NCBI GenBank assembly: GCA_028711415.1
Contig: JAQTSG010000002.1
Location: 1-51,442 of the forward strand
Reading direction: 5' to 3'
From: Patescibacteria group bacterium
GTDB lineage: Bacteria; Patescibacteriota; Patescibacteriia; Patescibacteriales; JAQTRU01
Length of the DNA stretch: 51,442 bases
Position 1 is the first letter of the stretch. Every line of letters starts with the position of its first letter. The notes beneath the pieces are model-generated. The model made no database searches. It had not been told where the DNA came from and worked only from the letters and a program-made list of their open reading frames with translations. Shown here one piece after another: positions 4,008 to 9,264 of this stretch. The position numbers were made by a program, and so were the translations under genes.

Positions 4008-6174
4008 CAAACAAGAAGCAAAAAAACGAATTGCTAAATTAAGGAAAGAGATTGACCATCATCGCTATCTTTATCATGTTTTGGATAAAATTGAAATCAG
4101 CGACGCGGCTTTAGATAGTCTAAAAAATGAACTCTTTAAATTGGAAATGGCCAATCCTGAATTTATTACGCCCGATTCGCCCACCCAAAGAGTGGGTGGA
4201 AAACCTTTAGACAAATTCATTAAAGTAGTCCACTCTCGGCCGATGATGTCTTTGTTTGACGCTTTTTCTCCGGAAGATATGAAAGACTGGGAGGAAAGGA
4301 TTAAAAAATTAATCCCCCTTATCCCCTTTATCAAGGGGGAGACAATCCCCCTTCGTCCCCCCTCAAAAGGGGGATATGGGGAGTTAGATTATTACTGCGA
4401 ATTAAAACTGGACGGGTTAGCCATGACTTTAAAATATAAAAATGGGATTTTTATAGAGGGAGCGACCAGGGGAGACGGGAAAGTCGGTGAGGATGTAACC
4501 CAGAATTTAAAAACGATTGAAAGCATACCTTTGCGGCTAAGAGAGCCGGAAGAAGGTGAGCTAAAAAAAATTGGTTTAGACGTTAGGCAGATAAAATTAG
4601 TCAGGACTGCTTTAGAAAAGGGAGAAATAGAAGTGCGGGGAGAAGCGGTAATGACCAGACAAGTCTTTAACGAGCTTAATAAAAAATATAAAAAAGAAGG
4701 CAAACCTCAACTGGCTAATCCGCGCAACGGCGCGGCCGGTTCAATCAGGCAACTTGACCCGAAACTGGCGGCCGAGAGAAAATTAAGTTTTTATGTTTAT
4801 GCTTTAGCGACTGATTTTGGCTTAAAAAATCATGAGGAGGAACATAAATTGGCCGAAGTTTTAGGATTTAAAGTATTGAAAGAAAATAAATACTGCCGAG
4901 ATTTATCCGAAGTTTATAAGTTTCATGATTATTGGGAAAAAAACAGAGAAAAAATGCCTTTTGAATGCGACGGAGTAGTTATAGTGGTAAATAATTTAGG
5001 TTTGTGGCCGGTCCTCGGTATTGTCGGCAAGGGGCCGCGTTATATGATGGCCTATAAGTTCGCGGCCTTGGAAGCAACGACGAAGATAAGAGAAGTCGTC
5101 TGGCAGGTAGGCCGGACCGGAATTTTAACTCCGACGGCCGTGCTGGATCCGGCGCCGGTCGGCGGCGTAACTATTACTCACGCTACTTTACATAATATGG
5201 ATGAGATAAAACGTTTGGGCATAAAAGTCGGGGATACGGTTATCATCCAGCGGGCCGGAGACGTAATTCCGAAAGTGGTGAAAGTTTTACCTAATTTGCG
5301 CTCTGGCGAAGAGAAAGAAATTAAGGTGCCGAAAAAATGCCCAATGTGCGAAAGCGAAGTTACCAAAGTGCCGGGAGAAGTCGCTTATCGTTGCTCCGGC
5401 ACAAATTGTTACGCGGTTAATTTACGGCGCCTAGCCCATTGGGTTTCTAAAAATGCCGTTGATATTGATGGCTTGGGTCCGAAAATTATTGAACAGCTGG
5501 TAAAAGAAGGATTAGTAAGGGACGTAAGCGATTTTTATATTTTAACAGTCGGCGATTTAGAGCCCCTGGAAAGGTTTGCCGAGAAATCCGCGGATAATTT
5601 AGTTAAGGCGATTAATGACAGAAAAAAAATAGATTTACCTCGTTTTATTTATGGCTTAGGGATTAGACACGTGGGCGAAGAATCGGCGATATTATTAAGT
5701 AAGAAATTATCACCGCCAAGGCGGGACGGGGAAGTAAAAAGTAATAAGATTTCTGATATAGTAAAGAAATTTAAGATGTTGTCTTTAGAGGAGCTGGAAA
5801 AGTTAGAGGATGTGGGGCCGATTGTGGCTAGAAGTATTTATGACTGGTGGCACGATAAAAAAAATTTGGAGTTGCTGGAAAAGTTAGAAAAAAACGGAGT
5901 GGAAATTGTGTTAAACAAAACACAAGGTGCGAAGCAGATTTTAACAGGTAAAACCTTTGTTTTAACCGGAACTTTAAACAGTTTGACAAGGGATGAGGCA
6001 AAAGCTAAGATAAGGGAGCTGGGTGGAGATGTTTCCTCGTCTGTAAGTAAAAATACTGATTATGTGGTGGCTGGGGCTGAACCGGGAAGCAAATACGATA
6101 AAGCAATAAAGCTTAAAGTTAAGGTGATTGGGGAGGATGAGCTTCTTAGGTTCCTAACGAATCAACGAATTTAA
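3970..6174 (+). CDS. ligA: NAD-dependent DNA ligase
   Basis: HHRYLYHV N-terminal Ia domain; adenylation motif CELKLDGLA; Zn finger CPMCESEV...CSGTNC; HhH region; BRCT GKTFVLTGTL. An alternative in-frame GTG start lies at 4003. Carries two repeat-derived in-frame insertions and a repeat-encoded C-terminal TNQRI. Confidence 0.95.
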   Translation: MEKKDNKISNEVDKQEAKKRIAKLRKEIDHHRYLYHVLDKIEISDAALDSLKNELFKLEMANPEFITPDSPTQRVGGKPLDKFIKVVHSRPMMSLFDAFSPEDMKDWEERIKKLIPLIPFIKGETIPLRPPSKGGYGELDYYCELKLDGLAMTLKYKNGIFIEGATRGDGKVGEDVTQNLKTIESIPLRLREPEEGELKKIGLDVRQIKLVRTALEKGEIEVRGEAVMTRQVFNELNKKYKKEGKPQLANPRNGAAGSIRQLDPKLAAERKLSFYVYALATDFGLKNHEEEHKLAEVLGFKVLKENKYCRDLSEVYKFHDYWEKNREKMPFECDGVVIVVNNLGLWPVLGIVGKGPRYMMAYKFAALEATTKIREVVWQVGRTGILTPTAVLDPAPVGGVTITHATLHNMDEIKRLGIKVGDTVIIQRAGDVIPKVVKVLPNLRSGEEKEIKVPKKCPMCESEVTKVPGEVAYRCSGTNCYAVNLRRLAHWVSKNAVDIDGLGPKIIEQLVKEGLVRDVSDFYILTVGDLEPLERFAEKSADNLVKAINDRKKIDLPRFIYGLGIRHVGEESAILLSKKLSPPRRDGEVKSNKISDIVKKFKMLSLEELEKLEDVGPIVARSIYDWWHDKKNLELLEKLEKNGVEIVLNKTQGAKQILTGKTFVLTGTLNSLTRDEAKAKIRELGGDVSSSVSKNTDYVVAGAEPGSKYDKAIKLKVKVIGEDELLRFLTNQRI
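4312..4381. repeat. GC-rich composite palindromic insertion kept in-frame inside ligA
   Basis: Outer arms atccccctt (4312-4320) / aagggggat (4367-4375). Inner hairpins cccctt-tatc-aagggg (4323-4338) and ccccct-caaa-aggggg (4358-4373). Encodes PLIPFIKGETIPLRPPSKGGYG just upstream of the KxDG motif, where E. coli LigA (from memory) has about 14 fewer residues. Confidence 0.75.
5711..5727. repeat. 17-nt GC-rich palindromic element caccgccaaggcgggac (copy 1, inside ligA)
   Basis: Identical 17-mer at 37137-37153. Contains the hairpin ccgcc-aa-ggcgg. Read here as SPPRRD. Confidence 0.85.
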
Positions 6175-6241: not shown

Positions 6242-6256
6242 AATAATGTGATATAT

Positions 6257-6649
6257 ATGCAAGGAGGGGAGCATATAATTTATAAAGATTTGAGTTATAA
6301 AATTGTTGGTATTATGTTTGAAATTTATAACGAGTTGGGATATGGTTATCAAGAAAAACATTATGAGAGAGCGGCTGAAAAAATTTTCATTGAACGGAAA
6401 ATAGATTACAAAAAGCAATTACGGCATAATATAATTTTTCACAACGAGAAAATAGGGACTTATTACTTTGATTTTTTAATTGAAGATAAAATTATAGTTG
6501 AGTTGAAGAAAGGAAATTATTTCTCCAGGAAAAATATAATTCAGGTTAAAGAATATTTATCGGCTGTCGGCTTGAAGCTGGCTTTAATAATAAATTTTAC
6601 TCCTTATGGAGTAAAAACTTTAAGGATATTAAATCCAAACAATAAGTAG
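6257..6649 (+). CDS. GxxExxY family protein (PD-(D/E)xK nuclease fold)
   Basis: NELGYGYQEKHY matches GxxExxY. DFLIEDKIIVELKK matches a D..ExK core. The track ORF starts at GTG 6248; the first ATG is at 6257. Confidence 0.75.
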   Translation: MQGGEHIIYKDLSYKIVGIMFEIYNELGYGYQEKHYERAAEKIFIERKIDYKKQLRHNIIFHNEKIGTYYFDFLIEDKIIVELKKGNYFSRKNIIQVKEYLSAVGLKLALIINFTPYGVKTLRILNPNNK

Positions 6650-8491: not shown

Positions 8492-8526
8492 TTAAATCTT
8501 AAATCTTAAATCTGCAATCTAAAATC
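8492..8526 (+). repeat. Tandem heptamer tract TTAAATC x3 plus TGCAATC and TAAAATC
   Basis: Read directly. Ends 5 nt before the tRNA-Ser fragment. Confidence 0.75.
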
Positions 8527-8531
8527 AAAAA

Positions 8532-8645
8532 GGAGAGGTCGCCTAGTGGCCGATGGCGCACGCTTGGAAAGCGTGTATACCGCAAGGTATCGAGGGTTCG
8601 TGGGGTCATTCGACCCCACGCCCAGTCGAATGACTGGGCGAATCC
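8532..8645 (+). pseudogene. Truncated tRNA-Ser(GGA) copy: 5' 69 nt identical to the intact gene, then a 40-nt insertion in the T-loop, then aatcc; no 3' T-stem or acceptor strand
   Basis: 8532-8600 is identical base for base to 8915-8983. No CCTCTCC-type 3' acceptor strand follows. Confidence 0.85.
8601..8640 (+). other. Double hairpin block inserted in the T-loop of the truncated tRNA copy
   Basis: tggggtc-attc-gacccca (8601-8618) and gcccagtc-gaat-gactgggc (8620-8639). The apical segments gtcattcgac and gtcgaatgac are reverse complements of each other, so an alternative fold exists. Confidence 0.7.
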
Positions 8646-8650
8646 ACGCT

Positions 8651-8929
8651 ATGTATTATGTTTATATATTATTACAAAATGATGGTAATTTATATAAGGG
8701 TAGCACGGATAATTTGAAACAAAGAATTGAGGAACACAATGCCGGCAAAGTTATTTCCACTAAACATAAAAGACCCTTAAAATTGATCCATTATGAAGGT
8801 TATTTGTTTAAGGAAGATGCCCAAAGAAGGGAAAAGTATTTAAAGACAACCGAGGGCAGGAGGTTTTTGAGACAACAATTAAAAATTTTTTATATAAAGT
8901 ATAATATCAAATCCGGAGAGGTCGCCTAG
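8651..8929 (+). CDS. GIY-YIG nuclease family protein (small YhbQ/YazA-like, COG2827 type)
   Basis: MYYVYILLQNDGNLYKGSTDNLKQRIEEHNAGK...REKYLK. The track ORF start (8546) lies inside the tRNA fragment and is rejected. The stop TAG (8927-8929) lies 15 nt inside the intact tRNA-Ser. Confidence 0.85.
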   Translation: MYYVYILLQNDGNLYKGSTDNLKQRIEEHNAGKVISTKHKRPLKLIHYEGYLFKEDAQRREKYLKTTEGRRFLRQQLKIFYIKYNIKSGEVA

Positions 8930-8999
8930 TGGCCGATGGCGCACGCTTGGAAAGCGTGTATACCGCAAGGTATCGAGGGTTCGAATCCCTCTCTCTCCG
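8915..8999 (+). tRNA. tRNA-Ser (anticodon GGA), class II with long variable arm
   Basis: Manual fold: acceptor GGAGAGG/TCTCTCC (one G-U); 3-bp D stem; anticodon stem CACGC/GCGTG with loop TTGGAAA; variable arm ATACC-GCAA-GGTAT; T arm GAGGG-TTCGAAT-CCCTC; discriminator G. CCA is not encoded. Confidence 0.9.
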
Positions 9000-9022
9000 C
9001 TTTTAAACCACCCCCATTTTTA

Positions 9023-9031: not shown

Positions 9032-9059
9032 TTAATTACAGAGTTTGCTCTGTAATTAA
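9032..9059. promoter_or_regulatory. Perfect 12-bp-arm palindrome ttaattacagag-tttg-ctctgtaattaa directly after the -10, candidate operator or 5' UTR hairpin
   Basis: The arms are exact reverse complements. Located between the putative -10 and the ATG at 9073. Confidence 0.5.
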
Positions 9060-9072
9060 TTGTTTTTACCTT

Positions 9073-9264
9073 ATGGCGAGGAAGAAATTAGAAGAAAGAA
9101 ATATAAGAAAATTGGCTAAGGTTGGCGGAAAAAGAACCTATAGCTTAACTTTGTCGATTGAGGCAATAAGGGAATTTGGCTGGAAGGAAGGCCAGAAAGT
9201 GGTTATTGAAGTGGACAAAAAAGGGCAAAGGTTTATAATAAAAGACTGGAAAGATAAATTATAA
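9073..9264 (+). CDS. AbrB/SpoVT/MazE-like small DNA-binding protein
   Basis: 63 aa. YSLTLSIEAIREFGWKEGQKVVIEVD resembles the swapped-hairpin (looped-hinge) beta-barrel motif. The assignment is by pattern only. Confidence 0.5.
   Translation: MARKKLEERNIRKLAKVGGKRTYSLTLSIEAIREFGWKEGQKVVIEVDKKGQRFIIKDWKDKL

Follow-up and report, generated by a model that had tools for sequence, protein, structure and literature searches.

The contig JAQTSG010000002.1, from the assembly GCA_028711415.1 of a Patescibacteria group bacterium, carries a small GIY-YIG nuclease gene set between two copies of one tRNA sequence. The window analysed here is the whole stretch of 51,442 nucleotides (nt). The element in question, referred to below as the cassette, occupies positions 8532-8914 and lies directly upstream of an intact tRNA-Ser(GGA) gene. 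It consists of a truncated copy of that tRNA, a pair of short hairpins placed in the T-loop of the truncated copy, plus the open reading frame (ORF) of a single-domain nuclease (Table 1).

Table 1. Features of the tRNA-Ser(GGA) locus, with positions in the window
Feature	Position	Strand	Basis
TTAAATC tandem repeat, five copies, 3' of the gatA stop codon and 5' of the truncated tRNA copy	8492..8526	+	Tandem Repeats Finder
Left direct repeat, a truncated tRNA-Ser(GGA) copy (positions 1-69) with GGTTCG as its T-loop end	8532..8600	+	69/69 identical to 8915-8983
Double hairpin, 40 nt, inserted at TTCG^AATCC of the T-loop	8601..8640		fold z = -5.5, covariation
AATCC, where the T-loop and then the T-stem 3' strand resume behind the hairpins; nothing more of the tRNA 3' part is present	8641..8645	+	sequence
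GIY-YIG nuclease gene, 92 amino acids, single-domain, UPF0213/YhbQ type	8651..8929	+	Pfam PF01541
Intact tRNA-Ser(GGA), whose first 69 nt are the right direct repeat	8915..9000	+	ARAGORN; Rfam RF00005, 52.8 bits at 8915-8999
Terminator-like hairpin with T-run, 3' of the intact tRNA	9032..9059	+	consensus scan only

Repeat finding showed that the two tRNA copies form the sole two-copy 69-nt family in the window, with 100% identity and a start-to-start distance of 383 nt. A blastn search of the whole window with the tRNA found these two copies only (8532-8600 and 8915-8983), and an exact repeat of this length in 51 kb is beyond chance expectation. The downstream copy is the single tRNA that ARAGORN recognised in the window; the upstream one was called neither by ARAGORN nor by Rfam RF00005. 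A first-pass annotation, made from the letters of the sequence alone, had described identical 69-nt repeats of tRNA-Ser(GGA) positions 1-69, only the second of which belongs to a whole tRNA, and had pointed out that the 5' part is duplicated, that the breakpoint is in the T-loop and that no integrase is present. All of this was borne out, and the GIY-YIG gene is the only ORF in 8532-8914. Its statement that the unit carries nothing but this ORF was correct as to genes, but the double hairpin and the split T-arm are carried as well.

The reading frame of the nuclease gene is open from 8546, but its conserved start codon is ATG at 8651; translation stops at TAG, 8927-8929. The last 15 nt of the ORF, including the TAG, fall within the intact tRNA, and the stop codon lies in its D-arm; the first-pass annotation had already placed it inside the tRNA. 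The protein matches PF01541 over residues 1-70 (E = 9.9e-17; score 61.5 bits, cut-off 22.6). Across 35 aligned sequences Y3, Y5, Y15, R25, H29, E49 and E61 are invariant, and these we take to be the GIY-YIG motif, catalytic and metal-binding residues. The best matches in the PDB are two UPF0213 proteins, 1YWL (EF2693, 2.5e-8) and 1ZG2 (BH0048, 1.5e-6). They are the best relatives of solved structure and are like the window protein in size and one-domain build; unlike it, they have no known mobile context, and their identity to it is low. None of the NCBIfam models matched the window nuclease. By blastn the gene is the only copy in the window; at least 898 relatives of the protein were found among clusters at 90% identity. 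The ORF is under purifying selection, with a ratio of nonsynonymous to synonymous substitution rates (dN/dS) of 0.04-0.21 across comparisons. In several predicted homologues the N- or C-terminus is extended by translated tRNA sequence, and sometimes one and the same peptide stands at both termini.

The double hairpin sits exactly at the break. The first hairpin (8601-8618) is TGGGGTC-ATTC-GACCCCA, followed by CG at 8619-8620, and the second (8621-8638) is CCCAGTC-GAAT-GACTGGG, followed by CG at 8639-8640. The interrupted tRNA then resumes with AATCC, and the ATG begins 5 nt after it. Compared with shuffled sequence the region is far more stably folded (z = -5.5); it has no match in Rfam, and its core motif, GTCATNCGAC, occurs at a single place in the window, 8601-8640. 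For comparison, 80 related loci (numbers with the prefix L below) were fetched of the at least 581 in species-representative genomes and scanned for tRNAs and repeats, and their hairpin pairs were located with a regular expression for the core motif. The pair is kept at the break in about 55 places across these loci. When the 45 distinct pairs were aligned, 98.9% of the cells were paired and compensatory changes were present in 12 of the 14 base pairs. Double changes in the stems numbered 110 against 28 in shuffles, and none of 500 shuffles reached the observed value. One-sided changes are rare, G-U cells amount to about 5 of 630, and the loops are invariant, C-ATNC-G in the first hairpin and C-GRAT-G in the second. 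The near-absence of G-U pairs is unlike an RNA helix and fits DNA hairpins, or palindromes propagated as such. Together, these features point to a DNA element whose structure is constrained.

Two alternatives were rejected. A single long hairpin, with the top of the first pairing to the top of the second, showed no covariation. A tRNA intron or group I intron does not fit either, as Rfam finds the intact tRNA only, the interrupted copy is without the acceptor 3' strand and the hairpins have nearly no G-U pairs. In the 80 loci and the window together, 162 hairpins of this kind were counted, 95 of them within 100 nt 5' of the ATG and 38 at +200 to +600. They are confined to the cassettes, with almost none elsewhere in the 3 kb flanks on either side. 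Additional single hairpins were also observed. They are made of an 18-nt palindrome plus about 4 nt of tail, for example TAAA, which makes 21-23 nt in total, and both orientations occur. They lie in the D-loop, the stems and the variable arm of truncated copies only, never in an intact tRNA, and the copies that contain them are otherwise ~98-100% identical to the intact tRNA. The loci are L001, L015, L016, L017, L020, L023, L026, L030, L046, L055, L072 and L074, with the hairpins 100-250 nt 5' of the ORF.

The site was compared in contigs of the closest relatives by gatA, at 78-88% amino-acid identity. At seven of these loci (L081, L083, L085-L089), one intact tRNA-Ser(GGA) begins 6-41 nt after gatA, and no nuclease gene separates the two. 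The synteny of ligA, PD-(D/E)XK, gatC and gatA is kept in L083, and its tRNA differs from that of the window mainly in the variable arm. The first-pass annotation had suggested looking in related genomes for an empty site of this kind, a single tRNA-Ser without the GIY-YIG gene, and had named as the alternative an ancient duplication present in all relatives with diverged repeats. The empty site is present in the seven relatives and the second arrangement was not found. As the closest gatA relatives are without the cassette, it is a gain specific to the lineage of the window.

A further relative, L084, has at the same gatA/tRNA-Ser site a more distant GIY-YIG gene of 101 amino acids (4501-4928). 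Here 14 nt of the tRNA 5' end remain (GGAGAGGTCGCCTA), followed by different GC-rich hairpins and then by resumed D-loop sequence. To judge from this arrangement, the cassette in L084 is an independent insertion by another subtype, with the break in the D-loop. ORF-less remnants, consisting of a variant hairpin and a tRNA 3' fragment, were found 3' of tRNA-Ser in L083 (4550-4625) and about 100-290 nt after it in L085, L086 and L087. One of the fragments is cognate and one comes from another Ser tRNA. The window cassette, the L084 cassette and the old remnants of the relatives thus indicate that the tRNA-Ser(GGA) site was hit repeatedly and independently.

The same architecture recurs at many other tRNA genes. 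A same-strand tRNA abuts the ORF in 63 of the 80 loci; 19 anticodons are represented, and 36 of the 63 tRNAs are serine tRNAs. The layout of the window, class A, was found in 48 loci and consists of a truncated 5' copy, the ORF and an intact same-strand tRNA that starts -45 to +40 nt from the stop codon. In the mirror layout, class B (13 loci), an intact tRNA ends 0-54 nt before the ATG, and the ORF is followed by a tRNA 3' fragment. Both layouts are present together at 2 loci. At another 6 the tRNA lies within 400 nt of the ORF, and 11 have no tRNA, 5 at contig ends and 6 from a distant clade without tRNA or hairpins. That clade (L058, L060, L061, L071, L073, L078) comes from Planctomycetota and other assemblies, and L058, L060 and L061 have an upstream motif, CCCTGTTAGAGTT, in common. 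The layout recurs in more than 60 independent assemblies. The annotation had proposed checking other genes of this type for flanking tRNA-fragment repeats, and such repeats are indeed found at many tRNAs.

In class A the truncated copy is followed by the hairpin pair, in most loci by 5-7 nt of resumed tRNA sequence, and then by a variable spacer and the ATG. In class B the 3' end of the ORF runs into GGGTTCG, the hairpin pair, AATCC and the acceptor 3' strand. The break always comes after a CG in a loop. Usually this is the T-loop, GGTTCG^AATCC; in tRNA-Ser(CGA), Arg(TCG), Arg(CCG) and Arg(GCG) the break falls in the anticodon loop instead, as in CTCG^AAAACC. The earlier description of a T-loop insertion that brings its own 5' copy therefore holds for the window and for class A, but not for the mirror class, which duplicates the 3' part. 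Without their hairpins the truncated copies are typically 94-100% identical to the neighbouring tRNA, and the homology ends 0-12 nt upstream of tRNA position +1. An end so near the gene, within about 12 nt, shows that the repeat is no large segmental duplication. Tandem arrays of cassettes are present at L003, L007 and L065. In a rough tree of the ORFs, some clades are tied to one tRNA type, and there are many switches between tRNA types and between classes A and B.

Some loci of the survey have further peculiarities. In 6 of the 13 class B loci the ATG follows 0-4 nt after the tRNA 3' end; in L002, L008, L009, L019, L069 and L070 the distance is about 0-1 nt. In this class the hairpin pair lies at the 3' end of the mRNA, and tRNA 3' processing could release a leaderless mRNA that starts with AUG. 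A nested arrangement was seen in L225 (990-1560). It begins with a truncated tRNA-Gln copy, hairpins and the ORF, continues with a second, hairpin-interrupted Gln fragment and a different intact tRNA-Gln, and ends with a 3' fragment that matches the interrupted one.

The promoter scan of the window locus gave matches no more numerous than in shuffled sequence, and no convincing internal promoter. The terminator-like hairpin after the tRNA is likely the end of a transcription unit with the truncated copy, the ORF and the tRNA; with such a hairpin there and no convincing internal promoter, the three are probably made as one transcript from upstream. Such an arrangement could also be read without mobility, as a local partial tRNA duplication that harbours a domesticated YhbQ-type nuclease, with the hairpins as signals for mRNA processing or stability, or as terminators. 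The constant orientation of the ORF on the strand of the tRNA, the probable co-transcription, the terminator-like hairpin, the short distance from tRNA to ATG in class B with its possible leaderless mRNA, and the strong purifying selection on the protein would all agree with this. It is very unlikely, however. The cassette is present or absent among close relatives, and the empty sites largely refute the idea. The same type of cassette is found at 19 anticodons and switches tRNAs in the ORF tree, the tandem arrays are hard to reconcile with it, and so are the foreign fragments and the common ORF-less remnants described below. In addition, stems with nearly no G-U pairs speak against a structure in RNA.

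A partial tRNA direct repeat with a T-loop breakpoint is the classical att signature of integrases. The cassette also resembles integrase-driven tRNA islands in its tRNA target, in a crossover in the T-loop or anticodon loop and in the regeneration of the gene. It is hardly credible, nevertheless, as the remnant of a tRNA-targeting island or prophage. The unit measures only 0.38 kb and holds the GIY-YIG ORF and no integrase, and in most loci it is the 5' part that is duplicated, upstream of the intact tRNA, which is the reverse of what integrases produce. The same pattern with the same small ORF is found in 63 of the 80 loci. A scan of viral contigs for the hairpin pattern gave only 2 matches, which leaves carriage of the cassettes by phages unsupported.

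What moves with the ORF can be seen from its nearest relative. L222, at 79% amino-acid identity, has the same layout at a different gene, tRNA-Ser(GCT). Between the window and L222, the stretch made up of CGAGGGTTCG, the hairpins and GAATCC is identical at 53 of 54 positions, whereas the ORFs are saturated at synonymous sites (proportion of synonymous differences, pS, 0.73; dN/dS 0.05). The hairpins and the split T-arm thus travel with the ORF and are extremely conserved. The remaining flanking tRNA sequence is, by the same comparison, target-specific. In L222 the truncated fragment and the resident tRNA are alike except at acceptor positions 4 and 5 and T-stem position 64. In L212 the fragment and the resident tRNA differ at 12 positions, mostly paired stem positions. 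The fragments of L036 and L054 each resemble the resident tRNA of the other locus, and the 3' fragment in L002 is foreign to its resident tRNA. With their differences at base-paired positions, the fragments look as if they had been carried in from other functional alleles and not like decayed local copies, and this suggests a mobile unit made up of fragment, hairpins and ORF. Its ends cannot be defined from paralogous insertions, because all places of the identical proteins P0099 and P0031 are the same locus in different samples, with no fresh insertions.

An unusual junction was found at a contig end in L223 (830-915, compare L222 529-616). The ORF is followed there by the 5' part of the resident-type tRNA, an element-type T-stem (GAGGG) and a hairpin. 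The contig was assembled by MEGAHIT with k = 141, and a sister sample has the intact tRNA after the ORF. In its composition this is the recombinant junction that a tandem dimer or an excised circle would give. The junction would also agree with a model in which host recombination of the Campbell type does the work alone. The tRNA fragment on a circle or on incoming DNA would recombine with the resident tRNA gene. Integration would not need the nuclease, which may have another role or may help to maintain the cassette, for example by killing or cutting alleles that lack it. Excision and re-integration would be possible through direct repeats of 36-82 nt, CPR (candidate phyla radiation) bacteria are able to take up foreign DNA, the carried foreign fragments come from the same isoacceptor, and the repeat homology ends close to tRNA position +1. 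The model is distinctly unlikely all the same. It gives no reason for a break that always falls at a loop CG with the hairpins exactly there, for a mirror class with only about 20 nt of homology, for the strict conservation of the nuclease or for the switches between tRNA types.

The hairpin pair is also found without the nuclease gene. Metagenome contigs were scanned for the hairpin-pair motif, which gave at least 120 stretches, about 17 of them chance matches without stems and about 100 true pairs. Among the matches listed, 29 of the ~100 true pairs have a GIY-YIG ORF within 150 nt, the ratio of ORF-less to ORF-bearing pairs being about 3:1, and 43 of the pairs without an ORF adjoin an intact tRNA, which may be of almost any specificity. 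In 31 of the 43 the pair is downstream, in the order tRNA, short spacer, GGTT-hairpins-AATCC and 3' repeat, and in 12 it is upstream. About half of all fragments are perfectly cognate to the adjacent tRNA. At least some of the ORF-less copies are internal deletions, since what is left of the ORF 3' end forms the spacer in L092, L144 and L148. Two other kinds of occurrence were observed. A contig of 1.5 kb (L169, ~925-1075) has a complete tRNA-Ser(GGA) with the hairpin pair in its T-loop, and in L093, L119, L136 and L162 hairpin pairs lie outside tRNA genes, within AT-rich repeats of GAAATCC-like heptads.

The ORF-less copies lead to the main rival of the reading that we favour, a transposon centred on the hairpins; the three models weighed above (recombination alone, no mobility, integrase remnant) fit less well. 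The double hairpin would itself be the mobile unit and the GIY-YIG protein its structure-specific nuclease, in the manner of REPIN/RAYT or the PATEs of IS200/IS605. The enzyme would recognise the hairpins in their folded state and, where a tRNA gene is extruded as a DNA cloverleaf, its loops; one strand would be cut in the T-loop, the other at the base of the acceptor stem. The tRNA repeat would then be a long target-site duplication made by fill-in, and the ORF-less copies would be non-autonomous elements mobilised in trans. The single-domain clade of the window protein includes the structure-specific nuclease Slx1. The stems covary like DNA and the pair is pseudo-twofold symmetric; most of the metagenome matches listed match both strands at the same coordinates. 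The excess of ORF-less copies, the extra single hairpins at several positions of truncated copies, the few pairs in non-tRNA sequence and the repeat boundaries, which coincide with the tRNA gene ends to within 12 nt, are all in its favour.

This transposon is rather unlikely, however. Strand transfer is not known for GIY-YIG enzymes. The hairpins are not dispersed, there being none elsewhere in the window and almost none in the flanks of the other loci. Foreign, non-cognate fragments are not expected from a target-site duplication, and several ORF-less copies are clearly internal deletions of ORF-bearing ones. The REP/REPIN-RAYT and IS200/IS605 systems have inverted hairpin doublets with structure-constrained stems, one small nuclease gene between such hairpins and an excess of ORF-less copies; their enzymes are HUH/Y1 transposases and their dispersal is genome-wide. 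Membership of the cassette in either group was rejected, as its protein is GIY-YIG and not HUH/Y1 and its hairpins are confined to tRNA-gene cassettes. A somewhat doubtful further thought, to which we give a little more weight, is that of a structure-guided element, a new class of mobile element whose single-domain GIY-YIG nuclease, of the Slx1/YhbQ type, would read both its own double hairpin and the extruded cloverleaf loops of tRNA genes. The tRNA fragment, hairpins and ORF would be moved between tRNA genes of many specificities and the ORF-less copies would be moved in trans. Every move would leave a tRNA part duplicated, with the loop CG and the gene end as its limits. Neither a transposase nor an integrase nor a reverse transcriptase would take part in such transposition or homing.

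With moderate confidence we favour the reading that 8532-8914 is a small selfish cassette that encodes a nuclease and regenerates the invaded tRNA-Ser(GGA) gene by means of the tRNA fragment that it carries. The mobile unit would consist of a leader of 0-12 nt and tRNA positions 1-69, the T-arm split by the 40-nt hairpins, and a gene for an 85-92-residue GIY-YIG protein, in the sense of the tRNA. Its movement may be pictured in five steps, for which we infer the target of the nuclease, the route of recombination and the role of the hairpins. First, the nuclease would break or nick the exposed CG^AA of a tRNA-gene loop, usually TTCG^AA of the T-loop, or of the anticodon loop where that contains CG^AA or CG^GA. 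Second, recombination with an occupied copy, with a tandem copy or with an excised circle would repair the break, the tRNA fragment being the homology arm. Third, the product is a truncated copy with hairpins and ORF followed by a complete tRNA, so that the essential tRNA is never lost, and the cassette would be co-transcribed from the promoter of the tRNA. Fourth, the hairpin pair, which is under structural constraint and which the system would need, would mark and inactivate the loop of the disabled copy; candidate roles are recognition, a polymerase stop, and protection from re-cutting and from repeat-mediated deletion. Fifth, the mirror form exists, and internal deletions give abundant ORF-less copies. 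The nuclease-driven, homing-like insertion that the first-pass annotation proposed is thus upheld as an insertion specific to one lineage, given the seven empty relatives, and is presumptive as to the nuclease being its driver.

Several points weigh against the selfish cassette. Cutting of DNA, or of the tRNA gene, by the protein is deduced solely from the constant CG^AA breakpoint. The hairpins disrupt the T-loop of the truncated copy, but the adjacent intact tRNA keeps an unaltered T-loop, so that a simple homing enzyme that cuts T-loops would re-cut its own locus. The protein is a single domain without a DNA-binding domain, which leaves its specificity unexplained. Homologous recombination alone does not explain how the fragment of a new tRNA type is gained. 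As about half of the fragments are non-cognate, the history is more complex than a single insertion. The purifying selection, strong and long-term as it is, could instead be due to a function that benefits the host. Finally, all sequences come from metagenome assemblies.

The nearest functional analogue of the cassette nuclease is, by its context, SegB. SegB of phages T4 and T6 is a free-standing GIY-YIG homing endonuclease in a tRNA gene cluster that cuts tRNA-gene DNA (PMC13096335, citing Brok-Volchanskaya 2008), and T6 SegB drives a tandem duplication of tRNA-Tyr and segB for which the tRNA 5' end and the segB 3' end provide the microhomology (PMC13096335). Like the cassette gene it adjoins tRNA genes, and it spreads by break repair. 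It differs in having neither a double hairpin nor a standing truncated tRNA repeat, and it is not part of a cassette that regenerates a cellular single-copy tRNA. SegB is also much larger than the 92-residue protein and has a DNA-binding region. The mitochondrial GIY-YIG gene of Allomyces, atp6-ORF360, which Paquin, Laforest and Lang are said to have described in 1994, reportedly travels with a copy of the end of the gene that it invades. The invaded gene is said to stay functional, with the displaced native part kept as a remnant repeat. Unlike the cassette, it reportedly has a protein-coding target in an organelle, duplicates the 3' end, is a larger ORF and has no hairpin pair at the junction.

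Short GC-rich paired hairpins like those of the cassette have been described in mitochondria. The passage of PMC2800124 that cites them concerns double-hairpin elements of Allomyces mitochondrial DNA and GC-rich palindromes that flank tRNA genes in Neurospora, both apparently mobile. As presented in that passage of PMC2800124, these elements are organellar, no linked nuclease is shown for them and they have no fixed loop position in a duplicated tRNA fragment. In the host group of the window, small GIY-YIG ORFs have been described in rRNA genes of CPR bacteria, in sparse non-intron insertions at the tops or bases of stem-loops, 'outside the context of homing' (PMC11270868). They share with the cassette the host group, the structured-RNA target and the lack of intron features; their targets are rRNA and not tRNA genes, and tRNA, repeats and hairpins go unmentioned (PMC11270868). 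In the literature, where subscription journals were thinly covered and an earlier account is possible, no description of bacterial GIY-YIG cassettes with tRNA-fragment repeats and hairpins was found.

The relatives of the nuclease and those of gatA both come from Patescibacteria (CPR) assemblies. Upstream of the cassette are ligA, a GxxExxY PD-(D/E)XK gene, gatC and gatA. The small nuclease-fold gene of the GxxExxY / PD-(D/E)XK_3 type, at 6248-6649 between ligA and gatC, is found at the same place in L083 and is absent from L084, L087 and L089, where gatC directly follows ligA. It is thus a second presence/absence polymorphism of a small nuclease-like gene in this neighbourhood. The tandem repeat before the truncated copy may be native upstream or promoter-region sequence of the tRNA, or a promoter or upstream element of CPR bacteria. 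Similar AT-rich heptad repeats precede tRNAs or host hairpin pairs at L059, L081/L085, L093 and L162. Downstream, directly after the terminator, is an AbrB/MazE-like ORF of 63 amino acids (9073-9264) with a Pfam match below cut-off (PF04014, E = 0.0013) and no evident partner toxin gene. It is followed by a gene that is GDP-mannose-dehydratase-like by similarity to the neighbour in L081.

If the favoured reading is true, cassettes of about 0.4 kb would be among the smallest autonomous mobile elements known, widespread in CPR/Patescibacteria and present in several other phyla, and they would use tRNA genes as safe harbours while rebuilding them. A nuclease of 92 residues, a 40-nt hairpin pair and a universal T-loop motif would make a tractable set for studying minimal GIY-YIG specificity, possibly including the reading of DNA structure. 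The cassettes would explain truncated tRNA 'genes', tRNA pseudogene calls and the odd N- and C-terminal extensions of GIY-YIG proteins that are translated tRNA. They may also explain assembly breaks at tRNA genes in CPR genomes, and would offer a route by which tRNA alleles could pass between lineages.

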